Below, piece after piece: positions 3,901 through 64,000 of a stretch of DNA of 64,000 bases. The stretch comes from a virus. Its lineage: Duplodnaviria > Caudoviricetes. The notes beneath the pieces are model-generated. The model did no database searches. It was not told the origin of the DNA and saw only the letters and a list, made by a program, of their open reading frames with translations. The position numbers and the translations under genes are program-made. The stretch is from the IMG/VR virus record IMGVR_UViG_3300037067_026010, positions 64,001 to 128,000 of that record; one strand, written 5' to 3'. Within the stretch, counting starts at the first letter, position 1; every line of letters begins with the position of its first letter.

Positions 3901-3916
3901 CGGTAATTAAGCACCG
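3901..3916 (+). promoter_or_regulatory. 16-bp imperfect palindrome, copy 1 (CGGTAATTAAGCACCG)
   Basis: Exact copy of a motif seen 7 times in the window. Confidence 0.7.
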
Positions 3917-4022
3917 AACCGTATGCATCTTATCGCATTTCCGACTGCAGAGCCATACGAAAACGGCTGCCGCGGACGAAGCCGGGCAGCCCGTATTTTA
4001 ACGCGGCGCACAGGTCGTAAGC

Positions 4023-10572: not shown

Positions 10573-11313
10573 CTACGGGCTGCCGGTTGTGGCCGCACAT
10601 ATTTCTGTTGTGTTCGCATGGGTGGTAAAAGTGTTAATAGAGGGGGATAACCAGTCCGGAGCGCGTCTTGCCGATAATAATTCCGGATCTATGTTACGAC
10701 ACTGTTTGTGTAAGCGGCTTACCGCTGCTCGGATTAACGCATTCACGTAATGCCGCGAGCATTGCAATTCTTGCGTTATCTCGCCACGCGACATGCCGGC
10801 CAGCCGCATTTCGAGAGCCTGGCGCTGCCGAAGCGACAGCCTGGTAACCGCAATGCGGAAAGCGTGCCGACTTTCCTGCTGCAAAAGACGGCGTATCGGC
10901 GGATCCTCGTACCAGCCCTGTACCGAGGTTGCATAAATTTGCCGGGGCGGCCGGCGGCGACTGTTTGGCCTGCGGACATACTGTTCCGTGCCTTGCTGCT
11001 TCCTGGCGTTTTGAATGGCCTGGCGAATCCAATAGGCTGCATAATTTGCAAAACGGTGTCCCCGACCCTCCTGCCAGCGTTCGATAGCCACTATCAGCCC
11101 CAAGATGCCGTCTTGAAAAAGATCTCGTAGAAGTTCACGAGGTTGTCGCAGGCCGCGGGCTATGTGCCAGACAAGACGCTGATTGCACAAAATAAGTTGC
11201 TCTCTAGCCTTGCCACAACCGTTGTGGGCGGCCCGTAGATAGGCTAATTCTTCGTCCGCCGTCAAAGGCGTTGCCGTAGTCGCATTATCGAAGACGCACT
11301 TCCCTGCCGTCAT
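10573..11313 (-). CDS. Sigma-70 family RNA polymerase sigma factor (regions 1.2, 2 and 4)
   Basis: PLTADEE, AREQLILCNQRLVWHIAR, DLFQDGILGLIVAIERW, RFANYAAYWIRQAI, C-terminal HTH LSLRQRQAL...GMSRGEITQEL. ATGA overlap with the upstream gene. Confidence 0.9.
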   Translation of the reverse strand: MTAGKCVFDNATTATPLTADEELAYLRAAHNGCGKAREQLILCNQRLVWHIARGLRQPRELLRDLFQDGILGLIVAIERWQEGRGHRFANYAAYWIRQAIQNARKQQGTEQYVRRPNSRRRPPRQIYATSVQGWYEDPPIRRLLQQESRHAFRIAVTRLSLRQRQALEMRLAGMSRGEITQELQCSRHYVNALIRAAVSRLHKQCRNIDPELLSARRAPDWLSPSINTFTTHANTTEICAATTGSP

Positions 11314-12284
11314 GGTTTTCGCGGTAATTGCGGTAAAAGTTGCACAGGTTCGTGTTGCAACAGGCGATCGACCGGGTGCTGGACCATAGCGGACCCTCCG
11401 GCCAGATATGCCTGCGTCTGCCGTATCGAGCGTTGCGGATCCATCGCATTCTGCATCCGGTCCCACGTTTTGGCTTCGGCGATCGCCCTGTCGCCACGCT
11501 GTTTTATCGTAGCCGCGTGACGTTGTAAAGCGCCGAGTAGTCCTTCACCGGCGTTATAAACCGGTTTGCGTCCGCGCAGCAGCTCCGCCCCATGTCCGCG
11601 CGCTGCCTCGGCGTAGAAACTCTGCGCCGCTTTTACCGGTGCGGGCGGATTCAAAAAATCTTCAACGTCGCCAACGGTTTTCAGCCTCGTTGCACTGTCC
11701 GGATCAATATCGAGATCGATCCAATGCTCCGCCAGTTCCGACGGATCCGCGCCGTAATCTTTCGCGTAGTCAGCTTCGCGATAGACCTGATCCGCCGGCA
11801 CATTAAATCGCTGCATCAGCAGTCGCTGCAACGCCTTATTTTGCAATGGCGTCTGCTCCAGCGTCACCGCCGGCTTATTCGATACCAAATCGGATACGGC
11901 CCCGAGGGCGATGTCGTCCGCCGCGCCGGTCGCCAAGGCCATCGGCGATTTCAATAGGCCGAGTACGCTTGTTTTAGTCAGCGTTTTGGAGATATCCGCC
12001 GGTACATGTGTCTTGGGCAGATGAAAGCGATAGCCGGTCGGTCGATGGGTAATGCCATAGAACCGCTGCAGCTCCTCGTCGATGTACCAGTTTTCCGGAT
12101 TGGAAAGCATCAACTTGCGCAGCTGCGCGCTTTTGGCGGCATAAGCACGGTTGTCGGAGAGCTGCTGAATAAACTGTAGCTGCTCAAGAAGTGGGTGCCC
12201 TGCATCGGGCGGCAGTGCGGCCGTTTTCACAAAAGCCGCCGCGCACGCTTCTACTGCGGCACATTCCATAATGGTGCATGCCAT
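11310..12284 (-). CDS. K-x-A-punctuated protein containing a degenerate acyl-carrier-protein-like domain
   Basis: KTAA, KTS and KAA motifs. The internal segment LQRLLMQRFNVPADQVYREADYAKDYGADPSEL...IDPDSATRLKTVGDVEDFL follows the ACP pattern. Confidence 0.6.
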   Translation of the reverse strand: MACTIMECAAVEACAAAFVKTAALPPDAGHPLLEQLQFIQQLSDNRAYAAKSAQLRKLMLSNPENWYIDEELQRFYGITHRPTGYRFHLPKTHVPADISKTLTKTSVLGLLKSPMALATGAADDIALGAVSDLVSNKPAVTLEQTPLQNKALQRLLMQRFNVPADQVYREADYAKDYGADPSELAEHWIDLDIDPDSATRLKTVGDVEDFLNPPAPVKAAQSFYAEAARGHGAELLRGRKPVYNAGEGLLGALQRHAATIKQRGDRAIAEAKTWDRMQNAMDPQRSIRQTQAYLAGGSAMVQHPVDRLLQHEPVQLLPQLPRKP

Positions 12285-17991: not shown

Positions 17992-18228
17992 TTACGCTGG
18001 CAAACCAGCGGAACTTTTATAAGGGTGGTCCCGACGCTGTAACGCGGTAATTAAGCACCGCGCAGCCTCGCAGGCCTCGGCGCAGTGTTGTTGCAACTGC
18101 AGCCCTTCGTAAATGTGGTAGCCGTCGCTACGAGCGTAAGCCGTCGTATTGCCGATGACTTGCGTCACGCCGTGGCTTAGCAAGCAGGTAAACGCCTCCA
18201 GGAGGTCATCCGCACATTCCGCTGCCAT
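17992..18228 (-). CDS. Small hypothetical protein
   Basis: AGGAG RBS; 78 aa. Confidence 0.45.
   Translation of the reverse strand: MAAECADDLLEAFTCLLSHGVTQVIGNTTAYARSDGYHIYEGLQLQQHCAEACEAARCLITALQRRDHPYKSSAGLPA
18045..18060 (+). promoter_or_regulatory. 16-bp palindrome, copy 2
   Basis: Exact CGGTAATTAAGCACCG. Confidence 0.7.
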
Positions 18229-20634: not shown

Positions 20635-20673
20635 GATCCCCTCCATGGTGCATGTTGCCAGTAATCTTGCACA

Positions 20674-25539: not shown

Positions 25540-26244
25540 TTATCGCACGCGGCCTAAAAGCACCAATGCAGGGTTCGTGTCGGGTATTACGATCGGTAAT
25601 TTACATTCCGGAACGGGGTTGGAGGCATTTGGCCAGGCACGGCAACCGACGAAATCGTGAGCGCGATAACCGTCGTTATGTTTTCGCCAAATAAAGTAAG
25701 GTTCGCTGCCGTGCGTCATCGGATCTGCCACTGTGGTCCTTTCAGCAACAAGCCGATCTTGCAACAGTCCGTCCTCCTCTGCGAAGGTCTGGCCGTATCC
25801 TCCTGCGCGACGAAACGCGGAAACGCGCAACGCCCAGGAGGCATGCATCACGTAACCGCCTGCGGACACACCGAGCATCCGTGGCGCACTCCCCGGTTCT
25901 GCAACATAAATCAAGCTCGGCTTGATCCAGTCGCCGTAGGCCAGTGCCCGTGCTGCAGCGGAGAGCGTCCAGGGAAGATAAAGATCGTCATCGTCCATAA
26001 CCTGCAGGGCTTCGACGTCGTTCGAGACTAGCGCAACGGCGGCATCGCGTTTCGCACCCAGATTGGGGTATCGTTGCGTGGTCGACACGAGCCGCCAGCC
26101 GTTGCCCTCCTGGGACTCGTACTGTCCGGCGTCGTCCAGGATCACGAGTTCCTTGTGCGGGTGGTCCTGGTCCAGGAAGCAACGAATAATGCCGCCCAAA
26201 TATTGCGGACGCAGGTAGGTACAACAAACCATCGCGAGCTTCAT
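25540..26244 (-). CDS. Family 2 glycosyltransferase
   Basis: CCTYLRP, ELVILDDAG, MDDDDLYLP, GGY....EED. Confidence 0.8.
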   Translation of the reverse strand: MKLAMVCCTYLRPQYLGGIIRCFLDQDHPHKELVILDDAGQYESQEGNGWRLVSTTQRYPNLGAKRDAAVALVSNDVEALQVMDDDDLYLPWTLSAAARALAYGDWIKPSLIYVAEPGSAPRMLGVSAGGYVMHASWALRVSAFRRAGGYGQTFAEEDGLLQDRLVAERTTVADPMTHGSEPYFIWRKHNDGYRAHDFVGCRAWPNASNPVPECKLPIVIPDTNPALVLLGRVR

Positions 26245-35216: not shown

Positions 35217-35255
35217 GGTTCAACCTTCCGTGGCTGGTTGTGATAGCTAAAAAAA

Positions 35256-35825
35256 TCACCTGCAGAGGCCGGCGCCGAAGTCTGCAGCCTTTGGCATCGT
35301 CGGGAGCTGCTTCTCTTGGGGCTTGGCCTTGCGGCGTTGGGCGTTATGCCTGATGGCCAGCGTAATCTTGGCTTGGCGATCGATATCGGGCGTGTCGTCT
35401 TCGACGGCTAACGCGGATTTGGCATGCTCGGGAAGGCCGGTGCGCTTTGTTTCGGCAAAATCCTCGGCAGAGCTCGGCGAGATATCGCCGGCTATCTCCT
35501 GCACCTTCTTAGAGGGGGCTGTCATTTCGCCCTTCTGGACGGCATGCACCATGCCGAAAAGACGCTGCTGCGCCTTAGAAGTGCTTTTGGCAGTCTTTGC
35601 CAGCAGCTCTGTGGCTACGGCTGCGCCGAATTGCGCGGCCTTCATCGGTTGCACCGGCGCGGCTGCCGTCAAGATGCCGGTAGCTGCCTGCCCGGCCCGT
35701 TGCGCCGCCTGGGCCATCGTAGGCTTCTTGGGACCCTTGCTGTGCTCGCGAAGGGCCATCGCGGGTGTCATACGCACATCAGCCTGCTTGTTGTGCATAG
35801 GACGCAGTAAATCGAGAACGGTCAT
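35256..35825 (-). CDS. K-x-A protein with a DUF3008-like segment
   Basis: KSTSKAQQRLFGMVHAVQKGE...AEDFAETKRTGLPEH lies between KTA and KSA; also KQA and two KAA motifs. Confidence 0.6.
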   Translation of the reverse strand: MTVLDLLRPMHNKQADVRMTPAMALREHSKGPKKPTMAQAAQRAGQAATGILTAAAPVQPMKAAQFGAAVATELLAKTAKSTSKAQQRLFGMVHAVQKGEMTAPSKKVQEIAGDISPSSAEDFAETKRTGLPEHAKSALAVEDDTPDIDRQAKITLAIRHNAQRRKAKPQEKQLPTMPKAADFGAGLCR

Positions 35826-35891
35826 GGCAAACCCTCCATGGTTGTACGTACCCGATTCTACCACAGGAAGGAAATCCGCACTAGGCGAAGA

Positions 35892-35940
35892 TAAAAAAGA
35901 GCGCCCCGGCAAGAAGCGAAGCTTCCGCCGGGACGTCTTC
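35892..35940 (-). terminator. Putative intrinsic terminator
   Basis: CCCGGC/GCCGGG stem with an inner GAAGC/GCTTC stem, followed by a T-run on the minus strand. Confidence 0.5.
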
Positions 35941-36041
35941 ACCCAATCAAGGTAAACGAAAAAAGTGCCGCAACGCGCAGAATCCATGAAAAACTGCGCA
36001 TTGCGACACCAAACAAGGCAAAATAACCTTAACCGGCAATG

Positions 36042-36057
36042 CGGTAATTAAGCACCG
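36042..36057 (+). promoter_or_regulatory. 16-bp palindrome, copy 3
   Basis: Exact copy; intergenic. Confidence 0.7.
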
Positions 36058-36081: not shown

Positions 36082-36582
36082 TCAGTCGCGGACCCGTTGC
36101 TCCCGCTCCTCGGCGTCGAGGTTGCGTTGGTAAACGCAGGCAATCGTCATATCGCCCTCGAAATGCTGATCGCCGTGCTCGGGATGCGGCAAAGATGCCA
36201 CGCCGTCGCGGGTCTTGAATACCGGTCCGACGTACTGTGCCGGGATGTCCTCCGTGCCTGGGCAAACCGCACGGATTGCCGCAACCACTTTCTCGGCATC
36301 GCAATCGAACGCGTCGCCGCGTTCCAGGATATGCCGGGCGCCTTGGGTGCTGCCGATGGCCATCTGCCGGTTGAGGCGTGGCTTCGCGCCGGCTGGCAAC
36401 TCCCGAATGCGCACCAGAATCACGTCGCCCTGATGCGACACGGTGCCGATTTCGAAATCCGCGTCCGTGAACGTGCGCGGAGCGTCGTTGACCATCCGCT
36501 CGGGAACCGCTTGCTTGGAGGCCGATTTCTTGGTTTGCTGCTTGGTTTGTTTGGATGCCTTGCTCGCTAAAACTTCCGTCAT
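36082..36582 (-). CDS. Conserved phage protein (QGDV...H...HxEH family), neighbour of DUF6745
   Basis: HQGDVILVR, GSTQGARHIL, HPEHG, YQR. Confidence 0.7.
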   Translation of the reverse strand: MTEVLASKASKQTKQQTKKSASKQAVPERMVNDAPRTFTDADFEIGTVSHQGDVILVRIRELPAGAKPRLNRQMAIGSTQGARHILERGDAFDCDAEKVVAAIRAVCPGTEDIPAQYVGPVFKTRDGVASLPHPEHGDQHFEGDMTIACVYQRNLDAEEREQRVRD

Positions 36583-42238: not shown

Positions 42239-42489
42239 AGCTGGCCTCGTCTCGTCGAGATAGCTGCTTCCTGTATTAGATTACCCAGGGCTTCGAGGTG
42301 CTTACCCTTAGTGCCGCCGGACTAGGCAAGTGCCGACGATGCTGCCGAAAAGAAACTATAGCAAACTGCCTGGCAAATTGCCAGCATGTACTTCGCAATA
42401 AAAAACGCGCCCCGGCGCCGGGATGCGTTCGCGGGGCAGGACGAACGCACAAGAACCGGTCACCGGGGCGCACAGTAAGACACGCCGCG

Positions 42490-42517
42490 ATTATAACACA
42501 AGCTATTTTGGGGGCAA
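42490..42517 (-). promoter_or_regulatory. Sigma70-type promoter TTGCCC-N16-TATAAT with an extended TG
   Basis: Near-consensus hexamers; palindrome copy 4 sits directly upstream of the -35 box. Confidence 0.6.
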
Positions 42518-42518
42518 G

Positions 42519-42534
42519 CGGTGTTTAATTACCG
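42519..42534 (-). promoter_or_regulatory. 16-bp palindrome, copy 4 (1 mismatch), just downstream of parB
   Basis: CGGTGTTTAATTACCG on the + strand. Confidence 0.7.
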
Positions 42535-42551
42535 CGTGCTGTCGCGCCGGA

Positions 42552-43424
42552 TTACTCAGCAAACGAGTCCAGCAGCTGGATCAGGTCGCTGATGGTGGCA
42601 TCCACCGATGCTGCGATCGCTTCACGGTCTTTTTTCGCACAACCTTTGTAAAGTCGATCGAATTCCTGCGCGGGCATATCCAGGTATTCTCCTACGCGCG
42701 CCCTGATTTGCTTCATAAAACCCAACAAGCGCACGACATGGTCCTTGGGAGATTGTATGGCACCCACCCTTACTGAGGCGGTTCGCGACGCGCCCATGAT
42801 GAATCGGCGTGCCTCCGACATGCCCATTTTGGCGGCGGTAATGCGCTTTGCCAGCTCCAGTTGCATTTCCTGCGGCAGCGGCACGAGCAATTGCGCCAGG
42901 GAGAACGTCAGCCTACCGCTGCCGCCGGCGCGCTCCCGCTTCTTGTCGCACGGCGCCACCAGCATCGGCCGGATTTCCGGATGCAATCTGCAGAGGTTCG
43001 CGTGCTGCATGACGTAGCACGTCGATTTGCCGAATATCTCGGCGATCTCTTTGACGGTTTTGCCGTGCGCCGAAAGCCGGTTTACCGCTGCGGCGATCTC
43101 CAGGCAGTTGTGTTTCTGCGCGTGAAAATTCGCCATGACGGCGACGGCAAAGCGATCCTCGGGCTCGGGTCGCACGATAACTTCGATAGGTATATTGGCA
43201 TGCAGACAGGCCTGCAGTCTGCGCTCGCCGTCGATCAGCTCGTAGTCGTAGCCCTCCAAGTCGCACGTAGTGACCTCGATCGGCTGACGCTGGCCGAAGG
43301 TCTTGATGCTTCGGGCCAGCTGCGCAATGTTGCGAAAATCGCTTCGCGGTTGCCCGACAAATGGTTTGACGCGCGCAGGGTCTACTGTCGCCAGGCGCGA
43401 TTGCGCCTGCTTTATCTTTTCCAT
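42552..43424 (-). CDS. parB: ParB/KorB-family CTPase with an HTH domain
   Basis: GQPR, LARSIKTFGQRQPI, YELIDGERRLQA, and HTH KTVKEIAEIFGKSTCYVMQ. Confidence 0.88.
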   Translation of the reverse strand: MEKIKQAQSRLATVDPARVKPFVGQPRSDFRNIAQLARSIKTFGQRQPIEVTTCDLEGYDYELIDGERRLQACLHANIPIEVIVRPEPEDRFAVAVMANFHAQKHNCLEIAAAVNRLSAHGKTVKEIAEIFGKSTCYVMQHANLCRLHPEIRPMLVAPCDKKRERAGGSGRLTFSLAQLLVPLPQEMQLELAKRITAAKMGMSEARRFIMGASRTASVRVGAIQSPKDHVVRLLGFMKQIRARVGEYLDMPAQEFDRLYKGCAKKDREAIAASVDATISDLIQLLDSFAE

Positions 43425-43523
43425 CGGCTTCCTTCCTCGCATAAGTCCGCAGTACGCCGAGTTTTCCATACTCACGTTCGTAGGTGGCATTTCGCGCCCT
43501 TTGTACCTGTTCCTGGTAATTCG

Positions 43524-43539
43524 CGGTGCTTAACTACCG
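43524..43539 (-). promoter_or_regulatory. 16-bp palindrome, copy 5 (1 mismatch), just upstream of parB
   Basis: CGGTGCTTAACTACCG on the + strand. Confidence 0.7.
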
Positions 43540-46500
43540 CCGATCTCCTCGCACACTTCCGCCACGTCGTCTTCGTCGATTTTGAAACTGAGCGTTTGCA
43601 TAAGCTTGCGCGCTGCCTCGTCCGCGCTGACGCCCAAACGCTGCGCCTCGCTATTCACACAGCACCGAAACAGCTCCATTTCACGGTTCGTCAATAAACT
43701 CGCCGCCATGATACCTCTCCTTTCTTGGAAAATAAACACCGATTAGTCGCGCTGCAGCTGCATCACCGTTCACCGCGGGCTTGATATCGGGCCTGTGCTA
43801 TGTACATTCGCGTCTCCGCGCGAATTACGTCACCTACGCGACTATGATCGTCGTTGGCAACGCCCGTCCGTATTTGGGACCCGACCGCCTGATCAGCCTC
43901 GTACAGCTCTGCACTGCCGTCGTACGCTTCCCAAATGGCATCTTCGGCAATAGCGGGCTCCGTACAGACGTGTAAATAAATGATTGTTAGCGATTGGCCG
44001 GCACGCCGTGTGCATTCGGGCAACATCGCGATTTCTCCTTTTGTGGCGCATCAGACCTGAGCAGCGTCGCTGGTCTCCAGTGTCGAGCGCAGTTCTTCGC
44101 AGAATATCTGTATGGGTTCCCAAATGTGCTCCACGACCATCTCCTGGACGTGTATTACAACCGCGGCGTGCACGCTATTCATGCCGGTCTGTCGCTGCAG
44201 GCAATGTACCACTTCGTGCAATTGGCCCGCAAGGTCGGCACGCGTCATGATACTGCCTCCTCTTTTGTGGCCGTGGCCTGCGTTTCGACAGGGTCCCCAA
44301 TCGCGGTAAGCGTCAGCCAGCAGGAATAACTTATACCGCGCCAAATCGTATATTCAACAGCCTGATGCACGAAGTTCGGCCATGGTAACGCCAGCCGCAT
44401 AGCTGTCTCGGCTACACGCAGTTGCCAGGGAATGGCATGTTCGGAGGTCATGGGGCCACCTCCGCCGTCGCAGCCTCGGCCTGAGCGTCAATAGACCTCT
44501 TAATTGCAAACTGCAGCACCCTCCAGCAGGGGACGGCAGCACTACCCCAAATCGTATGATCGACGGCCTGCGAAACGTGCCGGCCCGCAATCGGCACTAC
44601 TGCATACCGGGCCACGTCCAGTTGTGCTTGGATGCTGTCCTTGTGTGTCATAAATACCGCACTCCTTTAGTCCGCGGGAACATCCAGGTCGACATAAGCG
44701 AGGCACACGAGCCGACATATCGCGCCCCAGAATTCCTGCGTAATTGTCAGGCCGCCCGCCCCGCCTTCGATGAAGCCGTGTTCACGCCACGATCGCAACA
44801 CCTCGCGCTCCTCTTTAGAGATGTGCGCCGGCTCTAGTTTCTGCGAATTCATCATCACATGCATAACGTACGGCATCAAACGCAATTCCGTCACGCTGGT
44901 CGCGTAACCGAGCAGCTTTTCCGCCTCTCTTTGCACGCGCGGGGTCAACGCCCCTCGTTTTTGATCCATGATTTGCTCCTGTTGTCGCAGGGTTAGCCCA
45001 GTTCAGGCCGCCGTAGCATTTCGCATATCTGCATTGCAACGCCCACCCGGATGACGTCCTGCATATCTGCGTAGTCGCCCGACACCGGATAATAAGCAAG
45101 ACCCATGACGTCTTCTCTTGTTCGTATGATGCGCCGCGCGCATAGGAACTGAATAGCTTCAGGGACCTGCATATAAACGTACATCAGCCCCGGTTCTACC
45201 ACGCGCTCCAGGCAGAGGTCGCCTACCTGGTACCGGACCTCCTCAAGAATTTGTGTCATCGCCTGCCTCCATGCTTTCACGGGTACTCGCCCGACTTTGC
45301 TCCGCGAGTTGCCTAACGACGCCAGTCCACATCGAAAATAGCTGGCGGGAGCACTGCGCTTGTACGTCGTAACTGGTAACACCGGCGAGCCTAGGCAAAT
45401 ACCTTAGCAGTTCGTTCTCGCTCTGCCGCAACCCGCGCAGGCGCTTATTTACTTTTTTACGTTTGGTCGCCATTTAATTCCTCCAGTATGCAGTCATCCA
45501 TTTGATCCCGTACTGCCCTGGCGATATTGTCCGGATCGTGCGTCGCGTCGAACCGGTCGCGTATTGTGGCACGGACTGCCGCACAGACAGCGTCGCGTGT
45601 GGCAGCCACTAAGGGCGTATCCACGTCGATACGTATAGCTTCGGGAACATGCCCCGCAAACAGCGCCCGCAGGCTGGTGCAAAACCGGTCCTGACACAGG
45701 AATGTGGCTAGGTTCATGTTGCCTCCATTATTGTTTTTCTTCGCGGTGGTCTTCCGCTAATTTCTGGTGCAACTCGTTGATCTGCGCATTCTTTTTGTGC
45801 AGTATCTTGTACAAGCGCGTCAGCTCTGCGCGAGACGCTTTCACGATCCTATTCAACAAAGCAACTGTCTTCTTCGGCAAAGTCAGCATTTCCGTAGCTG
45901 CCACGCCCGCCACAGGTGGATTTGTTGCCAGCCTTGATGCCAGCTGTTCGCGGTATCGATACACAAGCTCCCGCAATTCCGCGGCCATCTTTGCCAAATG
46001 TGGATGCTCCTCCGCGCATTTGCAATAGGTCAGTGCCGCCAGCTGACAGGCGGCAATATGCGCCGGGTCGTCCGCGCTGGCGTTTCCGTCGATTCTGAGC
46101 ACGAAATACATTGCGTCGGGATCCACGGGGCCGCCATCGACTTTAGTGATATTGTAGCGCTGGTGTAACCCGGTCGGGTTGTCTTGGCTTGTAGGCAACA
46201 TATGCAATCTCCTTCAAATTTAATTCAACAGGGCGCATCCACGGCTTCAGGCCTCGGCAACCTATATATCTTGTCGCCTACGATTCGATGCGTCGGTGTT
46301 TCGAACGGTTCGCACGTACGATATTCGCACCCGGCGTCGTCGCTCAGGCGTATCACGCTATCGCTTTGGCACTGGTAGTAGCGCACAACGCGGTTTATCG
46401 GATCGTTTCCGGCCATCTAGCCCCCCTTCCGCTTAATCTGCGCGTGCAATCGTTTGAATTGCCGAATGTTGGCGCGCGTGTGTTTAACTACATCCTTGAA

Positions 46501-47391
46501 ATCCTTCGGGATCTCCTGTTTGAGTTTGGCTCCTCGGTAAACCTCGAAGGTGTTCGCGTCGATATAGGACTCTTCATACTCGATGGCCAGCCGTAGAGCA
46601 TGCAGCATTATCTGGCAGTCACGTTGGTTCATTTTGTTACCTCAGGTCCTCCTCGTCGAATTCTATTGCACTGGCGAAGGCTGGCGAGTACGCGATCATA
46701 TACGCCAGCCGCACTTTCGTTTGCTTTTCAAACCATTCTTCCAAGGTTATTGCGAAGTTGTTCGATGCGCAGATCAACCAGTCGTTTCTGTCGCCGCCTA
46801 AAGCAACGGGACAGTCCGCAGCGCCGCTTAGCAGTTCAGACATAGCGTCACACTGCTCGTAACAACAATGATACATCGCTCCGCATTTCAATATTGCTTT
46901 TGCCAATAGGTAGGCTGCATTGCTGACGATTAACATGCTTCTCTCCTTTTTTCTTTTTTTTAGGTTGTGGGGCGATGCCCTGCGGATATAACGGCCCCTG
47001 CCTGTGCCCTGATCAACCGATAGCCAGGCACCCACGCCTTGATGTGTCCCTCGATCTCGTGTATCGTCCGCATCCCGACGCTTGCCCTGGCACTATCGGC
47101 CAGTTCATCCAGCACACTATGCTCAGCCGCTCTCGGCACTTGGCTCACCAGCAGGTGCATCAAACGGCGGCAGGCATACGAGGCCTTTTGAGCTTGCACG
47201 GCTGCGCGGGCGGTATCGTAAAGCGGCTGCTGCAACTCGAAACCTGCGCTGATCCTGCCTAGTATGAAGGACTTTTGGCGGGGGCCGATACGGCCCGCTG
47301 CTGCCGTACCCACGGCACCGAAATAGTTGTACCATGCCGCCGCCAAGTCATTCCAAAGCGCGTTTAACAACTCCTCTTCCGTTCGGCACAT
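43530..47391 (-). other. Run of about 14 small hypothetical phage genes (e.g. 44667-44969, 45457-45717, 45728-46207, 46417-46632, 46637-46936, 46960-47391)
   Basis: Tightly spaced minus-strand ORFs, many with GGAG-type RBSs; no recognisable catalytic motifs. Confidence 0.6.
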
Positions 47392-47858
47392 ACATCCTCC
47401 TTTACGGTTTCGCGCGTGGCAGTGCCGCAACAAACACTCCACGAGTCCGGCGACTCTCCACGCTCGCATCGAGCCAAGGCGGCTTGAACAAAAACCAGTG
47501 GCTCGTCCAGCAACGCTTTTCCCTCCGCGGATCGCGCCGGCGTGTTCTTGAAATACTGCAGAATCTTTTCCGCATGCTTCAGCCCCGGAATGTACTGCCG
47601 AAACACGTGCTGGCCCCACACTTCGTCTGCGGCCGCCGCTTTTAATGCGCTGACGGGCGTATCCCCGGGGCACAATACGTGGGCTTCATAGCGAGCGTAT
47701 TCCTCGAAACAATTCGGCTCGACCAGAGCGATAAGACACACTCCTACCGCCAGCGCATGGTACACTAAGTGCGTGCCGTCCGGCATCTGTGCAGCCAGCA
47801 AAGCCCCGCTGACGAGCAACATACCGCGGCACAACAGCACCAGGTAAATTTTAAACAT
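47364..47858 (-). CDS. Two-TM membrane protein; N-terminal paralogue of 50992-51615
   Basis: MFKIYLVLLCRGMLL versus MFKVYVLLACRVFLL. Confidence 0.6.
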   Translation of the reverse strand: MFKIYLVLLCRGMLLVSGALLAAQMPDGTHLVYHALAVGVCLIALVEPNCFEEYARYEAHVLCPGDTPVSALKAAAADEVWGQHVFRQYIPGLKHAEKILQYFKNTPARSAEGKALLDEPLVFVQAALARCERGESPDSWSVCCGTATRETVKEDVCAERKRSC

Positions 47859-48039
47859 GTGATTTCCCTTCGTACAAATCATGGTTTTCGGTATTGGGTC
47901 AGGAATGTGTTGCCGGAATCCTTCTTGAAATGTTTTTTCTTTTTTGCAATCCACCCGAAAGAGTAATAGGCGCATCGGATTCCATTGGGATACATTGAAT
48001 CCAGCTTGGATTCCAAATGGCATTTCTAAGGGAAAAACT

Positions 48040-48693
48040 ATGATAGAACTCGAAAATTTGCGGGTTTCGCTCACAAAGAACGGGTATCTCAAGATCGCCA
48101 CGATTGTAGCAGAGCATCCCGGCCATGAAATGCTGGACCATGTTTCCGGCAGTCATGCGGGGGTCAACTTGGTCCGCTCACAAGTGGCGAACATTCTTTG
48201 CGCCGATCCGATAACCGGCACACTGCCAACGCTGTGGGATGATTTGCGGGATTACAATCTGCCGACGATCAGGGCATTTACACTTGTAGCGGTCATCTTC
48301 TCCCATGAACGATTGATCCGCGCATTTCTACGGGCTGGGCGCGGAACACCGTTTGGTACACTTCTTCGCAACGAAATGACCGAGAAGGAGTTTACGAATC
48401 TGCAATTTGCCATGTCGTCAGTGGGACTATGCGATTACCAACGCGGATCCGATCAAATCACTTATGATATGTCGGTTCTTACGGAGCAACTCAGCCGCGT
48501 CGGCGACTTGGTGCGCGAATTGTTGCGAGTCAAATTACAACGTTGTGGCTGGAGAGACCCTGATGTCTTCCGCATCGCGGCGGATCCTCCGGTTGAGGAA
48601 CAATGTATCCAAGAAGGCTTCCACGAAGTTTTTGGCATGACGGAGCATGCGTTCAGACAATGGCTTAGCGGCCGACCGAGACAGCCGCGCTAA
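48040..48693 (+). CDS. IS passenger gene of unknown function (217 aa), convergent with the MTase
   Basis: One of the few credible + strand ORFs; AAGGG RBS; lies inside the IS. Confidence 0.65.
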   Translation: MIELENLRVSLTKNGYLKIATIVAEHPGHEMLDHVSGSHAGVNLVRSQVANILCADPITGTLPTLWDDLRDYNLPTIRAFTLVAVIFSHERLIRAFLRAGRGTPFGTLLRNEMTEKEFTNLQFAMSSVGLCDYQRGSDQITYDMSVLTEQLSRVGDLVRELLRVKLQRCGWRDPDVFRIAADPPVEEQCIQEGFHEVFGMTEHAFRQWLSGRPRQPR

Positions 48694-49310
48694 GCACCGA
48701 CCGCACTTGCCATCCGTTCGGATCGTGAGTAGCCACGAATAAATGGGCGACTTTGCAAATAGGTTTCCGCTTCGTCGCCCCATGATTTCCATCGTGGGCG
48801 CGGCGCACGCGCAAAGAGTTCGAGATATGGCCCGGGGCTGCAAGCCTCGATTACGTCGTACAATTCGTCCGGTTTTCGGGAATGTTCGCGCTTGCGAGAT
48901 TCGACGATGTTGACTTGCCGCCGTCCAGGCGCAAGGGTTCGCATTGAACCACGAACGCCGAAAAGAACAACTTCCGTCACGTTTCGGAAATAGAAACCGA
49001 CGCCACGGCCATCCGGTCCGCCGTCCTTTCGTATTTTGTACCAGATTATATTCGTTTTGTAGGTAAAGCCCCAAGCATCCAGAACATCAAGCCCCTCTTT
49101 TAAGAGAGCGTTCGGAACCCATAGATACAAGTGGCTCCGTTCGGCGCAATGTGATGCTATCGGCATATCGCAGATTTCATCCAGCGACATTGTCTGGTAT
49201 CGGCGAAGCCGTTGATGCTCCGGCGCAACCTTTCCAGTGCGATTATCGAACCTCCAGGGGGGGTCTGCTAAAATGGTGCCAAAATGCCCAACAAGGCCGG
49301 GAAGCGTCAT
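48690..49310 (-). CDS. MT-A70 family N6-adenine methyltransferase
   Basis: ILADPPW, HLYLWVPN, WGFTYKTNIIWYK, GVGFYFRNVTE, HSRKPD, YLELFAR. Confidence 0.93.
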   Translation of the reverse strand: MTLPGLVGHFGTILADPPWRFDNRTGKVAPEHQRLRRYQTMSLDEICDMPIASHCAERSHLYLWVPNALLKEGLDVLDAWGFTYKTNIIWYKIRKDGGPDGRGVGFYFRNVTEVVLFGVRGSMRTLAPGRRQVNIVESRKREHSRKPDELYDVIEACSPGPYLELFARAPRPRWKSWGDEAETYLQSRPFIRGYSRSERMASAVGA

Positions 49311-49380
49311 ATTTCACCTGTAGCTTTTAATGGTTGTTTCGGTTATATCGGCTAAAAGACCGCCGATATTCAATTTTTCC

Positions 49381-49434
49381 GTCCACCCAAATTATACACA
49401 AATAAAAAACATTTGCAAGAGTTTTTGGGTGTAC
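49381..49434 (-). promoter_or_regulatory. MTase promoter (TTGCAA-N16-TATAAT) bracketed by inverted GTCCACCCAAA-type boxes
   Basis: GTCCACCCAAA at 49381-49391 and TTTGGGTGTAC at ~49424-49434. Confidence 0.6.
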
Positions 49435-49562
49435 AAAAAAGATCCATGCCGGATCTCAATCAGAGAGGAGAAAATAGTACTAGAAATGCGGCGGGTGTAC
49501 CGCGTCTTGGTCGGCGCAGCAGCCTTATAAACTGCCGTAGGTCTCGGCTATGCCGAAGGGGT

Positions 49563-49799
49563 TCAACTCCCACACCCGCCGTTTTTTTCTTCAAGAATGT
49601 CGCTATTTTTCTTAAGAATTCGGTTTGAAACACGCAATAGCACATCGCGGACAAACTCGGAGGTATTTTTTGCTTTCTTTAATTTAGCGGCTTGTTTAAC
49701 GAGGGCATACTCCGCTTTAGGCATCCGAAAATATTGTTTGGGAGTCTCGCCTGTGCGGGGACGACCTCTACTACGGAGGGATTTAGCTTTCTTTTTCAT
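49563..49799 (-). CDS. Small ribbon-helix-helix-like DNA-binding protein
   Basis: RGRPRTG, then YFRMPKAEYALVKQAAKL....NTSEFVRDVLL. Confidence 0.7.
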   Translation of the reverse strand: MKKKAKSLRSRGRPRTGETPKQYFRMPKAEYALVKQAAKLKKAKNTSEFVRDVLLRVSNRILKKNSDILEEKNGGCGS

Positions 49800-49805
49800 A
49801 CCCTT

Positions 49806-49880
49806 AGTTTACGTCCACCCAAAATTTTTGTCAATTCAAATAATATTTGGGTGGACAAATAATCGATGACTGTGTATAAT
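49806..49880. promoter_or_regulatory. Divergent promoters (RHH gene: TTGACA-N17-TAAACT on minus; transposase: TGGACA-N17-TATAAT on plus) overlapping inverted GTCCACCCAAA boxes
   Basis: Boxes at 49813-49823 and 49846-49856. Confidence 0.65.
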
Positions 49881-50010
49881 ATGAATATCAACAAAAAACC
49901 CCGGTCAGACTGGCATCCGGCCGGGGCAATCACAACCAAGCGGTTAAGCCTGATAGCGACTAGACACCCCTATTTTAGGCTTGCCCGCTGCAAAATGCAA
50001 AGGGTAATCC

Positions 50011-51009
50011 GTGATAGCTTTCGCCTGCAAGCATGAACAAGTTAAGAAACAAGGCCATGATAGGAATGGCAATCAACGCTTCCGATGCACCGTTTGCGGT
50101 AAGACCTGGATTGCTTCTAGGGTTAAGCCGTTTGGAGAAATGAGGATCGACCCGAAGAAAGCCCTTCAAGTGATTGAAATGCTCATGGAAGGCGTATCCA
50201 TCCGTTCGGCCGTCAGGCTGACCGGCATCGCCAAGGGGACGATTTTGCGACTTTTGGAACTTGTCGGGGACCGTGCCCAATACTACTGGACAATGGCGAT
50301 GAAGAATCTACCGGCAGCCAACGTACAAGTGGATGAGACCTGGGGGTTCGTTTACGCCAAGGAAAAAACTTGCTTGCGAAAACACCTTGGCACTGATTGT
50401 GGGGATGCCTACACCTTTTTGGCAATCGAGCGCGACAGCAAGTTAATCCTCGCTTGGCATGTAGGGCGGCGAGACCCGCAAGACACCGCTTGGTTTTCCG
50501 AGAAGCTACGAAACAACACGATGGGTCGATTCCAATTGACCACCGATGGATTCAAGCCATATTGTACGGCAATCCCGGAAGCATTCATGGGTAAGATCGA
50601 CTTTGCCCAATTGATTAAGACCTACGGAAAGCCGACCGGAGAGAGAAAGGCGGAAGCCCGCTATAGCCCCGCCGAAATAACCGGCATACGCAAACGGGAA
50701 ATGTGGGGCAATCCCGATATGAACGCCGTCAGCACTTCGCACATCGAAAGGCAAAACTTGAATATCCGCATGGGCGTTCGGCGCATGACTCGGCTAACGA
50801 ACGCATTCAGCAAGAAGTGGGAGAACCACGAAGCCCACTTGGCCTTGTGGTTTCTCTACTACAATTTCTGCCGACCCCATGCTACATTATCCAAGGGAGA
50901 GAAAAAGGGCGAAAGAGGAACGCCGAAAACGCCGGGCATGGAAGCCGGATTGACCGATCATGTTTGGAGTCTCGAAGAATTGCTCAATACTTTAGCAACA
51001 CATTATTGA
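50011..51009 (+). CDS. IS1-family DDE transposase (Zn ribbon + HTH + catalytic domain in one ORF)
   Basis: GNQRFRCTVCGKT, EGVSIRSAVRLTG, VDETWGFV, LTTDGF, TSHIERQNL..RM..RR.TR.T..FSKK, YYNFCRPH. Confidence 0.93.
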   Translation: MIAFACKHEQVKKQGHDRNGNQRFRCTVCGKTWIASRVKPFGEMRIDPKKALQVIEMLMEGVSIRSAVRLTGIAKGTILRLLELVGDRAQYYWTMAMKNLPAANVQVDETWGFVYAKEKTCLRKHLGTDCGDAYTFLAIERDSKLILAWHVGRRDPQDTAWFSEKLRNNTMGRFQLTTDGFKPYCTAIPEAFMGKIDFAQLIKTYGKPTGERKAEARYSPAEITGIRKREMWGNPDMNAVSTSHIERQNLNIRMGVRRMTRLTNAFSKKWENHEAHLALWFLYYNFCRPHATLSKGEKKGERGTPKTPGMEAGLTDHVWSLEELLNTLATHY

Positions 51010-51615
51010 CCCAATACCTGGTTTTCGCATTTTCTTGTTTTTCTTCCGGGCTGCCCGTTTTGCCTCGATAAGTTCGGAGCACTTCGCCGTCAACGCCTCC
51101 GCGCAGGCTTGCTGTTGCTCGTCGTAGTCCTCCGCGTCCTGTTCGATGCCCAAGTGGTGGCATGCCGCGCGCGCTAATTCCTCGCCGAGACACTCCACGA
51201 CGTCGCCCACGGGGAGGCTGCTGTCGAACATTATGACCGCCCGCTTGCTTCGGTCGCTAGGGTATGTAGCATACCCTACTGCGCCGGCCTCCTCTTGCGC
51301 CAAATCCGGCTCCACCCACCAAACGAGCGGACAGGGCAAATTCGGCCACAACGCCATGTAAGCCCGCGCCAGCATGTCGAACGGATCGATGCTGAAGAAC
51401 CTGCAGCCCGTGTTGGTCCGCGCGACGCGCTTTGCAACGCCGGCAGTTCGGCACTCTTTCGTGAAGCTCGGGATGATCACCACGCTGAGGCATATTCCGG
51501 CAACCAGCATCCGGTGTAGATGCGGCGCCTCCGCCGGCAGTCCGAGGGCCAGCACGAGCCCCGCTATAAGCAGAAAGACGCGGCACGCCAGGAGCACGTA
51601 GACCTTAAACATCAT
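50992..51615 (-). CDS. Two-TM protein with a degenerate zincin-like segment; C-terminus extended by the IS end
   Basis: Contains LGEELARAACH. The pre-insertion end would read MRKP-stop, with the TGA now at 47879-47881. Confidence 0.6.
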   Translation of the reverse strand: MMFKVYVLLACRVFLLIAGLVLALGLPAEAPHLHRMLVAGICLSVVIIPSFTKECRTAGVAKRVARTNTGCRFFSIDPFDMLARAYMALWPNLPCPLVWWVEPDLAQEEAGAVGYATYPSDRSKRAVIMFDSSLPVGDVVECLGEELARAACHHLGIEQDAEDYDEQQQACAEALTAKCSELIEAKRAARKKNKKMRKPGIGSIMCC

Positions 51616-52391
51616 TTTTTCGTCCTTTCCGGCGTTTAACGCCTTTCGCTTGTTTCCCGGGCCGGCCTTCGGCGTTCAACATCACGACTTTGGCGAAATC
51701 GGCTTTCATCGCCTCGTGCCCTCGGTGCAATATTTGCGCGAGGAGCATGTCCTGGTTGTCGCCGCCGGCCAGCGCGATACGCGTTTGCTGCAGCATAGAT
51801 AATAGATCAGCGGCTTTCTTTATTCCGCTTTGACTCATAGTACACGTCCTTTCTTATCACGACGGCTAAGTCCTATACTTATTATGCCAGTATTTTGCCG
51901 CTTTTTTACTTCACGATCGAAACCGCCAAGATACGGCCGTTTTTGAACTGCACGATCCTCTTGCGGGTAATGCCGCGCTCCACGAGGCTGGTGTAATGGA
52001 TACTCAGCTCCTTCGCGTACTCCTGCAGCAGCTTTGCCACCGTCAGGTCCCTGGCGAGTTTCGCCGCTTCGCGCCGCGACTCGAAAAATTGCACAGGAAA
52101 GTCGTCTCCCTCGCAACACGCTACGACGAGATAACCGTTCATGCTTGCTCCTTCTTGCGTTGTTCGTTTTTTGCAATCTTCCAACGTCGCTTCAGCCTCC
52201 CGGGCGATAGGGTCACAAAGCGTGTCCCAAAATGCCCCGATGCCCTGCGCTGCCTGGGGCCACCCGTCGCTATAAGGCAAACACGCCTCCTGCACAAGCT
52301 GCAAAAGCCTCTGATGGACAATTTCCAAATTTTTTCGCATTGCCTGCATAAGCCCATGCCGCCGTGCCTGGGCGCGCCGTGCGTTTAGCAT
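51605..52391 (-). other. Two hypothetical genes (51605-51838 and 51906-52391)
   Basis: ORF track plus RBS-like sequences. Confidence 0.5.
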
Positions 52392-55300
52392 AAATAACTC
52401 CTCTTTTCATGCCAGCTCCTGGGCTTGCTCACGAATCGCTCGCGCGATAGGTGTAATGATGCGGCCACTGGACCGAATTATGGTTTGCCCCAAGATCCAC
52501 GAGTCCGCAAAAGGCTCTACAAACCCCGCCTGGCACTCGGAGGCCAGACGGCTCGTGCTGCTGCCTAATTGATCGATAATGTCTTTTTCTTGCATAGACG
52601 CTCCTTTATCTCGGCTACGGCTTGCCCAGCAATTACCTCGCGGACCACATCATGCAGGTCGTTCACCGTGAATTCCACTGCAAGGGCGCGCGATGCAACC
52701 TCTGCAGCTACCTGGCACTGGCCCAGGTTGTGCAGCGATGTCAGCAACCTCCTTCGCAAAACCGTGTGAACGGCGATCTGCTCGTACAAGGTAGTTGCCG
52801 GATTGGCTTTATCGGCGAAATTCACCGTACGGTTAGTCCTGCGCGTCATGGTTTATCTCCCTAACCGCTGCAAACGCCTGCTCTACGACGGCAGTGCGCA
52901 ATCCATGTTGGTTACGACCGACTAATTCAAGGATCTGTGTCCGTACTGCGGGATTTATAGGTTCCGCGGCATCGAATATATGTATCCAGACCGTTTCGTT
53001 GACCTGGTCTTCGTGGGTATCCAGCTGGCCCGCTACGCTCTCCATGTAGCTCATGGTCTATGCGCCCTCTTCTCTACGGTGTGCCTGGCCTGCTCGCGGA
53101 GGGCTCGCCATATGTCTTCTCGCGCCTGGGTAACCGCTGCATCCTGCAGTACACGGAGACGCACGTCGGTGCTCACGCATCGCCCGATCCCGGCCCTCAG
53201 CGTGTTATCGAGGTACGTTACCAGCATATTCTCAGCCGCCAACAGGGGCCGGGCCACTACGTCCTGTTTATTCAACATGCTTACCTCCCCTCTATGGTGG
53301 CGATAAGGGCAGCGCGCAGTGCCGTGAGTACGTCGAAGCCTGGTACTACTACCTCGTCCCACGCGCGCGCCCGCATCCTAGGCGATACGTGCCGATACGT
53401 AGCCTCATTCAGGCCGACCCTAAGCGGCGACACAAACCGCCATTGCCCCGGCACTTGTACCTGCTCCGCAATAGCGCGCACTGTTCGATCATGTTGGGTA
53501 CTTGGAGGGATTTTCATGGTTTGTATTTCGGAAAGTTTTCTGTTAGAGATCATCCTCATTTTGTACGACGAGCCCGCTTTGTTGGCGTGCTTGCTCGCGA
53601 ATTACTGTCCTGATCTCCCGCAGGGCAGCAGCTGGAATCAGCAATGCATCGGCTGCTGCGAGGCAACCACGCTTGGTCATTGCGTTCCCCATCTTCGCAC
53701 CGTACTCCTCGACAGCCTTCAGGATTTGTACGGAGATTTCATGGTACGTCATAGGCGCTCCTCATCTCGACATTGGTCGTACGCAGCTTGCCCTACCGGC
53801 AGCAAAACGTTACTGATGGTGTCTTCTATCACCGCTGCTATGCCGGCACGTTCCCTGCCCGGAGGCAACGCGGCTTGGCAGGCGTGTCGCAGCTCCTGGT
53901 GCAACTCGTCGGCAAGCATACGCCACAGCACGGCATTACGCTGTGTCATAGCCGCTCCTTTGCGCGTTTGCGCAGATGTGGTGCCAGCTGCTCACGGAGC
54001 TGTTCAAGTATAAGTGCCCCGGCCGTATTGCTACGGCGAACTATTCTACCTAATTGCGCGTGCACCTCGCCGCTAACGCTTGCGCACAGCATCCGACTTA
54101 TTTCCTCTACCGCAGGCGCAACCCGGCGTAACTGGTCAATTATGTCATCACGCGTCATGGCTTCTCTCCCTGACCGCTGCAATCACCTGCTCTATAATAA
54201 CAATTCGCAATCCACGTTGGTTACGACCGACTAATCCAAGGATCTGTGTCCGTACTTGTGCCGTAAGCTGCGCGCGGAGACCTGCCTCGCAAACAATCCA
54301 CATGCTGTCGCGCATGCGCTTATACGGCGTATCGCGTGTCTGCTCGCTAATATCAGGCAAGATCATTGCCGCTCCTTTATCTCGACTATCGCCTGCGCAC
54401 GGATGAGGTCTGTTATACGCTGGCACACGACCTGCCGCACAATTCCCGCACGGCGTATAACCGTGGGTAGATTGCGCGACACATGAGCGTCAAACACGTC
54501 CATGGCTTTTACAACTTCCCAACGAAAACTGAAGATTTTCTGCGTCATAAAATCTATATGCCGCGCGACAGCGTCGTCCTGATGCACGGCTGCATTTCTT
54601 TTGATACGCATGTTTAGTTCACCCTTTCTACAGGAAAGCGTGGGGCGCAGGCCCGGTATGCCTCGCACAAGCTTTTAGTCTTGAACTGCGACCACTTGTA
54701 GGGAAACGTCGGCGCCCGCGATACTGCCGCTGACGACCGCGTCAAGCAACCGCGCCGCCGCCTTCACATTGTTGATCGGGCCCTCGGATTCCGGACAAGC
54801 AATCTCGATCACGACTTTCATCGTGTTCTTGGGCTTGTAAGGAGCAGAAAATTCGCGTTCGATGCCATCCTGCAGTTCTGCTGCCTTCGCGCGCACGCTT
54901 TTGATGCCTTGTTGCGCTTGTTTTTTGGTATCGTACGGCCCGTAGATGTCCTTGCCGTATGCTATGCTCGTTACATTGAAATACCAAGTCATGCTGTGTA
55001 CCTTTTTTTAATAATTTTCAATTATGTCCCTGTACCCGCTGCCGCAGCGGCCTGCTCGCGGAGGCCACGCCGCACTTCTTCTTGGGCCTGGGCAATCGTA
55101 GTACCTCGGAACTCCGAGGGCGCATGGCCCCAACGCTCCCGCACAGCCCGCCTGACCGCGAACCTGACCTCGGCATTAGTACGTTGCAGGGGCGCGGCCA
55201 CCACCCGTCGTGCGCCGCCCGAAGCTGCTGTGATCAATTGCTGCACAATACCCCTACGGTTTGTCATGGCGCGACTCCTTCCGGATCTGCTGCAACACGC

Positions 55301-56126
55301 CGGTGCGCAGCGGCGCAAGTCCTATGGATACCTCGTAGACAATGTCTGACTCAATGTCGTCGGCGAGGTTGCCGTCGATGCACGCGTCTTGCACCTTCAC
55401 CATCGCGTCAAACAATTTGTCCATAATTGAACACAGTCGGTCGTCTAGCTGCTTTCCGACATTAACGCGTGCCATGGCACAACTCCTTTCTGTGCGAAAG
55501 CCGCTCGATTCTGCCCTGAGGGCCCATCCGGCGGTTCGCCGTACAGCGGCTGTTAATCGCCCGCACCCGCTGCCGCCCGGGGCAACTCGTGGGTTTGCCG
55601 CAGAATTTGCGGCCACAGTTGCCGTAGGACTGGCTGCTGTGCTTGTTCCCAGACCTGTTCTTGGATTTGCCTGCAGACTTGTCCACGGACTTGCTCCTGG
55701 ACTCGCTGCCGAATGTGCCATTCGAACATCTTGGGAACTTGCGATAGCTGTGAACTTTGTATCTTCATAAGTCACCCTCCGCATCAAACTTGGCCTGCTC
55801 CTCCATGCGGAGTTGCCAAATTTGCGACTCGATCTGCTGACGACACTGTTGATGCACTGGCGGCACGGTTTGCTGCCGAACTTGCTGCTCGATTGGTCGC
55901 CGGATTTGCCGATGGATCTTGTCTATGCCCGCCGGCCAGATCTGTTCTAGGCCCTGCAACAACCCTTGTATTTGCCGCCGAACTCGCCACCCAACCTGTT
56001 CGTCCGCTTGCCGACGAATCTGCTGCAAACTCGAGTTTCTTAGCTTCATATATCGCCCTCCCTAGTAAGACTAGTTTGCCGCCGGTAGACCTCCGCGAAT
56101 ATAATACTTACGAACTTTATGCCCGG

Positions 56127-56142
56127 CGGTGCTTAATTACCG
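56127..56142 (-). promoter_or_regulatory. 16-bp palindrome, copy 6
   Basis: Exact reverse complement, CGGTGCTTAATTACCG. Confidence 0.7.
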
Positions 56143-62965: not shown

Positions 62966-62981
62966 CGGTAATTAAGCACCG
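62966..62981 (+). promoter_or_regulatory. 16-bp palindrome, copy 7
   Basis: Exact CGGTAATTAAGCACCG. Confidence 0.7.
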
Positions 62982-64000
62982 GGCCTTTTGTCTGTTTCTG
63001 CACGGGCTTGGCCTCCTACGAGATGCCTTACTTGCCCAACGCCGGCATCCCATATTCGATGCGTAAGCTGGTCCATGACCTCGTACATGGTCGCGTTATC
63101 CACGAAAGCCGGGTCCACCACACAGCACTGAATCGATTGGTGCCGCAGGTATTTATACAAGTCCTCCCCGCTCATCGGTAGCCTCCTGCGTACCTCGTGT
63201 TTGCGGCGTATCCGCCGGTAAGCGAGGCACTGTAACCACGTTAATATGCGACCATGCTGCGCCGCACACATTATCGTGCAACGGCCCTATGACCAGCGAC
63301 CACACACGCGCTCTAATCGCACGACTGCACTTGGCGGACACAAGCCGCTGACCCAGCACTATCTCAGCCAGCCGTTTCGCATCAATACGGTGTAAAGGTT
63401 CGTCCACCACTTGCCGTTCAATTTTGCTACGAGTCATCTGCTCCCTCTGTCGTACGGCAATGGCCGATATTCCGTGTCTGCTGCAATATGCTCCTGCACC
63501 GCGCTACTCACGCTATCGTTAAACCGCTCGATTTCAGGCAGCCACGGGGCCGCATAAATCTCTTGGCGACCCTTCTCGTACACATCCAGCAGGCAGGTAT
63601 GCGCTACGGGATGCTGTAGAGCCACCATAATACGATTTGCCGGTTCTTCGTGTAATTGCCGGAATGCTCTGTTTCCAGTCATTTGCGTGCTCCGGTATTT
63701 AGACCTTGTAGGTCCTCGCCGCGTCGATGCAATCCTTGAGCCACCGTATCGCCGCGTGATACTCCTCGCGGTACTGCGGGTTGGCGGCGCTGCTGTCGGC
63801 ATAAACTATATCGATGGTCTCCGCGAACGCCTTGAGCGTGCAAAAGCGCTTGCATCCGCAGAAAATATGGAGGCACGTCCGCAGTACGACTACCGTAGTG
63901 CTGCGCCCTGCTGATCCAATGCCGCCGAACTGCAGAATACGCAGAATCGGCTTGCCGTTGTACGTGGCACCGTACAGGTCGGCAGAAGCAAAGTTGGTGC

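Follow-up and report, generated by a model that had tools for sequence, protein, structure and literature searches.

A dispersed 16-bp palindrome in a 210-kb phage genome is most likely a docking site for a DNA-binding protein other than ParB

Seven copies of a palindrome around a ParB-like gene

The window analysed here, a stretch of 64,000 nucleotides (G000:C1:64001-128000), belongs to a 210,569-bp IMG/VR phage record that is rated 100% complete (IMGVR_UViG_3300037067_026010, here G000). It contains genes for a sigma-70-family factor and an orphan ParB-like protein and carries seven copies of the 16-bp motif CGGTAATTAAGCACCG:

3901..3916, plus strand: exact copy, located 15 nt ahead of the minus-strand ORF 3337-3885; it includes the TAA stop of ORF 3907-4218 and has a positional orthologue in the relative G025, GGTTTCTAAGTACC, ahead of the orthologous gene
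10573..11466, minus strand: phage-encoded member of the sigma-70 family with regions 2 and 4; it is the specificity subunit of the phage RNA polymerase (RNAP)
18045..18060, plus strand: exact copy, downstream of the gene for a 709-aa protein (18517-20646, minus strand) and in or beside a doubtful 78-codon ORF
36042..36057, plus strand: exact copy between genes 36082-36582 and 35256-35987 (both minus strand), where it forms the apex of a longer inverted repeat (CCGGCA..TGCCGG)
42519..42534, minus strand: copy with one mismatch (G11>A), 17 nt past the parB stop codon; 23 nt on, on the minus strand, lies TATAAT (42490-42495), with TTGCCC as -35
42552..43424, minus strand: orphan ParB-like gene P0001 (290 aa as called in the database) with ParB_N and HTH_ParB domains
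43524..43539, minus strand: copy with one mismatch (A6>G), 99 nt before the parB ATG at 43424; a 69-codon ORF (43530-43739, minus strand) ends with its TAA inside the copy
56127..56142, minus strand: exact copy, with TATATT 23 nt on, on the minus strand, in the same geometry as at 42519
62966..62981, plus strand: exact copy containing the TAA stop of ORF 62972-63271 (minus strand)

The initial annotation had proposed this motif as a new ParB recognition site, and its description of the sequence proved accurate throughout. All seven copies lie at the positions and on the strands it gave, against 0.01 expected from 100 dinucleotide shuffles of the window; five are exact and two carry a single mismatch, and both of the latter are those that bracket parB. 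Twelve of the 16 positions are symmetric, and a scan with the symmetric skeleton CGGT-NN-TTAA-NN-ACCG leads to the same seven places. The IS1 element at ~47890-51018 is free of copies, as had been stated, since the whole stretch 43539-56127 has none.

The genome-wide scan with significance testing that had been proposed as a check extends this picture to the entire record, which contains 22 copies with at most two mismatches as compared to 0.03 in shuffles. Fourteen are on the plus and eight on the minus strand, so that both orientations indeed occur, and the 12-mers taken from CGGTAATTAAGCACCG are by far the most repeated of the genome. The inner positions (AA..GC) are fixed and asymmetric, and 4-5 of the sense-strand copies have a C-A mismatch in the outermost pair. 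Outside this phage, the exact 16-mer occurs in viral contigs as three lone chance matches, and none of the 61 stretches of metagenome contigs that hold it is related to G000. The 16-mer is also part of a ~100-bp repeat in many contigs of the metagenomes Ga0056115/6, Ga0056128 and Ga0209568 (L175, L179, L180, L193, L195-L197, L208, L213, L216, L220, L227 and L229), which we consider a coincidence because these contigs lack similarity to the phage.

The location at gene boundaries that had been noted for most copies is highly significant. For 18/22 copies, a sense ORF with 60 or more codons ends within -45 to +14 of the site, as compared to 23% of random positions (p=1e-8). Ten of the 22 copies have a stop codon inside the motif, the TAA of the upstream gene coinciding with the TTAA centre, and the next start codon mostly follows 0-80 nt past the site. 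About 19 of the ~210 gene junctions of G000 are occupied. According to our own crude gene caller more than 93% of the genes lie on the minus strand.

Some copies stand in settings that deserve description in their own right. Outside the window, the copy at G000:C1:160134-160149 stands at the top of a hairpin with three tiers (ACGGCAGG/CCTGCCGT, CCGGTT/AACCGG, CGGT/ACCG) that is followed by T5; it looks like a full intrinsic terminator built round the motif, and the copy at 36042 looks similar. Between parB and the next gene, a self-contained unit on the minus strand (42400-42495) consists of TTGCCC-N17-TATAAT with an extended TGT, ~85 nt without an ORF led by a Shine-Dalgarno sequence, and a strong hairpin with a T6 terminator (CCCGGCGCCGGG..TTTTTT), and is a candidate small RNA. 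The promoter-like stretch by the copy at 56127 resembles the one by 42519 (TTATATTCGCGG and TTATAATCGCGG, respectively), both being located 23 nt from the motif.

A site family in relatives that lack ParB

The parB gene itself is genuine. Pfam recognizes ParB_N (2.3e-8) and HTH_ParB (2.3e-6) in P0001, the protein matches several phage ParB PHROGs, and the DGERRLQA box of CTP-binding ParBs is invariant in an alignment of its subfamily. Nine database proteins, mostly from contigs of 1-14 kb, are more than 35% identical to P0001, the nearest of them 46-50% and on short contigs; no homologues were found of the 69-codon ORF upstream of parB. Eleven viral contigs with ParB homologues of 29-39% identity (L008-L018) are unrelated phages, and their ParB loci share no parS-like site or common palindrome near parB and have none similar to the motif. 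A single one of them, L008 (IMGVR_UViG_3300014205_000382, 39% identity), carries a cluster of three to four perfect 26-32-bp palindromes with the half-site AAACCCCGG, crowded at 9266-9460 within 200 bp directly upstream of its parB, which looks like a classical centromere cluster. In L010, a family-2 glycosyltransferase gene (10855-11589) directly follows parB; its product is 31% identical to that of window positions 25540-26244 (minus strand), which in G000 lies 16 kb away from parB. ParB and glycosyltransferase may thus be functionally linked, perhaps in DNA modification.

True relatives of G000 were recognized by their RNAP. Single-protein peptide scans with ParB and with the 709-aa protein retrieved no close relatives, and GenBank phages gave no DNA match and protein matches of just 21-32%. 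By contrast, the C-terminal RNAP beta-prime protein has hundreds of relatives of 45-70% identity, the nearest (64-70%) in ENA/Logan only, where P0012, P0013 and P0016 come from contigs of 126-227 kb. We aligned RNAP beta-prime relatives from 71 IMG/VR loci, many of them on ~200 kb contigs, and compared the whole genomes of seven relatives.

None of the relatives searched contains ParB. ParB_N (PF02195) was found in 0/19, 17 of which are at least 90% complete (positive control in G000, E 5e-10), a profile of the ParB subfamily detected nothing in 30 relatives, and tblastn of ParB against six fully fetched relatives gave nothing real. The gene is therefore an accessory gene of G000 alone. Nor did the search for parA that had been proposed yield a ParA-type ATPase (PF13614, PF01656) in the 210-kb record, both controls being positive in 14/14 genomes. 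G000 thus has no partition module, and the plasmid-like or actively positioned genome that had been suggested is not supported.

Four of these ParB-less relatives nevertheless carry a homologous site of 14-16 bp, in 5-18 copies per genome. G001 (184 kb) contains 16-18 dispersed copies of GGTAAATAAGAACC, i.e. GGTAAATA[AG]GAACC, G010 (192 kb) 13 copies of GGTAATTAGAAACC, and G025, which is half a genome, five copies of GGTACTTAGAAACC. These three versions have fixed, asymmetric inner positions too and share their register with GGTAATTAAGCACC of G000, which defines the frame GGTA-N-W-TA-R-R-M-ACC; repeats of this frame are absent from 25 other relatives. The more distant G021 (47% GC) has a degenerate but true palindrome, CGGTRNTWWANYACCG, in 11 copies as compared to 0.17 in shuffles, and variation among them spares GGT/ACC and T..A, as expected for two equivalent half-sites. 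Members of the family centre on an A/T-rich TWWA within the core GGT-N8-ACC, which is mostly extended to CGGT..ACCG, and no relative shares its word with another genome (5-16 copies of the own word vs 0-0.07 in shuffles). The initial annotation had named retention of the motif by relatives lacking parB as evidence against ParB. This is in substance what we find, in the form of diverged versions rather than of the identical 16-mer. Some of the relatives without the frame have other dispersed palindromes in its place. One of them, the ParB-less G006 (L126-L135), has 42 copies of a different palindrome, AGATATCT (as WWAGATATCTWT; ~1.4 expected), about half of them within crude gene calls.

Across the genomes the sites lie between genes, close to where a gene ends (p from 1e-5 to 1e-8), and their orientation relative to the genes is mixed in all four genomes in which it was counted (8:14, 11:7, 9:4 and 3:2). 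Moreover, some junctions are occupied in more than one genome: the one ahead of an Mre11/SbcD-like gene in G000, G001 and G010, with the start codon 0-7 nt past the site (the gene was so named from an N-terminal D-x-H motif read by eye and is thus a putative member of this family); g1369|g1798 in G000 and G010; the one preceding the gene that follows window copy 3901 in G000 and G025; and g170916|g172125 in G000, G010 and G025. At the same junction each genome has its own version of the site, sometimes in flipped orientation. Private consensus sequences at shared junctions point to a concerted change of inherited sites and hence to a trans-acting specificity factor that is common to the ParB-less genomes.

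What may act at the sites

Taken together, the palindrome is most likely not parS and would be the docking site of a phage DNA-binding protein other than ParB, a conclusion that is drawn from sequence comparison and that is favoured because ParB-less relatives have their own versions of the site. We suggest, with moderate confidence, that the 16-bp sites are an operator-like network for a dimeric protein of this kind that acts on transcription; binding, the dimer state and the effect on transcription are all inferred. The motif would be the G000 version of a site family that spans the clade, lies in short intergenic spacers and is bound as double-stranded DNA by a dimeric, sequence-specific, phage-encoded protein, for which orientation would therefore be irrelevant. 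Sites and protein would co-evolve, giving each phage its private consensus, and the protein, sitting on ~20 junctions of a nearly unidirectional genome, would modulate transcription that passes or starts there, as a roadblock or repressor or as an activator, in the manner of KorB at OB sites or of stoperators. The extreme enrichment in G000 and its relatives, the mixed orientation in every genome despite the strong strand bias of the genes, the true palindrome of G021, the combination of private consensus and common junctions, the intergenic position at gene ends and the lack of copies in the recently arrived IS1 element all argue for such a network. Against it stand the fixed asymmetric inner positions, which a simple homodimer does not explain, and a binder search that gave no HTH_3 or HTH_17 protein in G000. 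In addition, some copies lie 0-5 nt before a start codon, and the G001 variant TAGGAACC provides a Shine-Dalgarno sequence and thus places the motif within the mRNA, so that a role at the RNA level is possible.

How, then, does ParB fare as the binder? A ParB-like CTPase could load at the sites and regulate or position the genome in G000 only, and the presence of a real gene with intact GERR box and HTH, bracketed by two copies of the motif and encoding one of the very few recognizable DNA-binding proteins of the phage, is in favour of this. Moreover, 16-bp palindromes are typical ParB sites. However, it is difficult to reconcile with the absence of ParB from all 30 relatives searched, four of which have the site family and partly at the same junctions, with the lack of ParA, and with the absence of a similar site near homologous ParB genes on other viral contigs. 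Both bracketing copies, furthermore, are variants rather than consensus sites, and with ~19 of ~210 junctions occupied flanking on both sides is not very improbable. We therefore regard ParB as an unlikely owner of the network. Of the operator proposed in the initial annotation, the dispersed, orientation-independent near-palindrome of the kind that dimeric proteins bind stands, whereas ParB as its protein is not supported.

It is likewise improbable that the sites are promoters of the phage's sigma-RNAP, with the TANNTA core as a -10-like element and short-leader or leaderless mRNAs. G000 does encode a multisubunit RNAP besides the sigma-70-family factor, and in Arash, a relative that has been cultured, both are components of the virion (PMC10585845). 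The 13-22 near-invariant copies with their genome-specific consensus resemble phage promoters, several copies in G010 and G001 lie 1-7 nt ahead of an ATG without a Shine-Dalgarno sequence, and the copies at 42519 and 56127 have TATAAT and TATATT exactly 23 nt downstream. But a sigma-dependent promoter should be directional, and the mixed orientation in genomes with unidirectional genes argues against one, as the initial annotation had already reasoned; the true palindrome of G021 and the position of the G001 variant inside the mRNA add to this. Sigma-70 -10-like hexamers and T-runs downstream of the sites are no commoner than at other junctions, and resemblances to the MotA box, the sigma-70 -10, the ECF -35, Fis and IHF sites, sought by eye or script, were neither consistently spaced nor enriched. 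More promoter-like is another element, which is strictly directional. It consists of a T-run and TTAGMTATCA, is found in the window at 35242-35250 (minus strand) and at many places in G001, G002, G006, G008 and G010, occurs in all clades and often lies directly behind a terminator hairpin; in G008 six such elements are clustered together with the further conserved boxes CTAAATA and GCATAT. It is likely a promoter family of these phages and a better promoter candidate than the palindrome.

The short GC arms, the A/T-rich 8-nt centre, the occurrence in both orientations after stop codons and the position of the accessory gene parB between two direct copies would also suit a nick or recognition site of a phage endonuclease or recombinase (T5-type or HUH/REP-RAYT-like) or a hotspot of module exchange like the documented PeSLs (PMC2839356, PMC4122927). 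We consider this quite unlikely, since the single-stranded DNA hairpin of the site is weak (-0.3 to -3.9 kcal/mol, with a stem of just 3 bp in relatives) and accessory-gene junctions are not enriched for sites (12/19 vs 120/192, p=1). The resemblance of the P0132 protein, described below, to a Rep protein is the further point in favour, but it lies within background and the protein lacks conserved HUH histidines. Least probable, and in our opinion very doubtful, is an element of the polycistronic mRNA, a small hairpin or an A/U-rich spacer with a role in stop-restart coupling, processing or stability. The stop codons within ten of 22 copies and start codons 0-30 nt downstream would agree with it, as would the RNA across the site in G000, which is more structured than at other junctions (p=0.0004). 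Yet this extra structure is missing in G001, G010 and G025, opposite orientations yield different RNAs, stem pairs never covary, the C-A mismatch disrupts the outer pair in several sense-strand copies, and an Rfam search of the window gave no match. A function as terminator was discarded as well: a few copies lie in settings with a hairpin and T-run, yet T-runs are not enriched.

Which protein, then, could be the binder? Apart from the sigma factor, ParB and the IS1 repressor, G000 encodes no recognizable sequence-specific DNA binder. The proteins confined to motif-bearing genomes are P0131, L152, f1798 and f29560; P0131 and L152 were rejected as candidates, being an RNase H and an AAA ATPase, respectively. 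Screens of phyletic profiles for a repressor gave only the RNase H, the AAA ATPase, glycosyltransferases and a zinc protein. The idea that ParB has replaced an ancestral binder was also dropped, as the sole gene common to the ParB-less motif bearers and missing in G000 encodes a family-2 glycosyltransferase. A lead, and nothing more, is the following protein:

G000:C1:181034-181966 (outside the window), minus strand: P0132 (L151), 310 aa, Cys4 and Arg-rich

It was rejected as a protein specific to motif bearers, because it belongs to a core family that occurs in motif-less relatives too (21 of the 31 genomes searched, i.e. G000 and 30 relatives). The family is fast-evolving and comprises 474 relatives; an N-C..C..CPxC zinc site is invariant in it, and the tail is rich in Arg. 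The confidently predicted structure of P0132 (pLDDT 92.7) matched no annotated fold; it comes closest to that of the SIRV1 ORF119 Rep (Z 6.5, rmsd 2.7, 101 aligned residues), a match within the ferredoxin-like background.

Known networks and the biology of the clade

The network that we propose can be compared with several known systems. KorB of the IncP-1 plasmid RK2 acts at 12 OB operators, which like the phage sites are short palindromes spread over the replicon at variable distance to promoters and without regard to orientation (PMC11790492). The ParB-family gene of G000, which encodes a CTP-binding box and an HTH, is a further parallel. Different from KorB, however, the phage site family persists in relatives without any ParB, no IncC/ParA or KorA-like partner was identified in G000, and the sites are at gene ends and not round promoters. 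The stoperators of Cluster A mycobacteriophages, asymmetric 13-mers that are oriented with transcription and bound by L5 gp71-type repressors, share with the sites described here their number of 20-30 per genome, their position in intergenic spacers mostly outside promoters, a consensus that is specific to each phage and changes with relatedness, and sites that relatives have in common at syntenic places (PMC6550527). But the sites of G000 and its relatives are palindrome-based and occur in both orientations. For the stoperators the repressor is known. G000, at 210 kb, carries an RNAP of its own, and no lysogeny genes were noticed in it in a non-systematic inspection.

The PeSLs of T4-type phages are longer, directional units composed of promoter and stem-loop (PMC2839356, PMC4122927). 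They resemble the phage sites as repeated intergenic regulatory motifs at gene borders and as possible substrates of module exchange, and the accessory gene parB of G000 is flanked by direct copies; the sites of G000 differ in that they have neither a promoter or terminator signature nor enrichment at accessory borders. REP elements are dispersed extragenic palindromes that form stable hairpins and flank the RAYT (HUH) gene. Like them, the phage sites are palindromes just past stop codons, in both orientations and with a genome-specific sequence. Different from REPs, the hairpin in G000 is marginal, and the evidence for an HUH enzyme is confined to the Rep match of P0132, which lies within background.

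A more specific and clearly speculative version, which we consider possible but unlikely, is that this subclade of RNAP-packaging jumbo phages uses a dedicated, fast co-evolving pair of protein and site to punctuate its one-direction genome at ~20 junctions, with the binder coming from an unannotated family such as that of P0132. If true, this would be a transcription-punctuation or genome-organizing system for a phage sigma-RNAP without described counterpart.

For the annotation of phage genomes, our results indicate that a ParB gene flanked by palindromes is insufficient for calling parS. Until now, dispersed operator networks had been described in one plasmid family and in a single group of temperate mycobacteriophages, and what is probably a comparable network is now seen in an uncultured clade of ~200-kb phages with their own sigma factor and RNAP and with private site sequences. 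Naming the binder would make gene control in these phages accessible and would provide a natural series of matched protein and site specificities.
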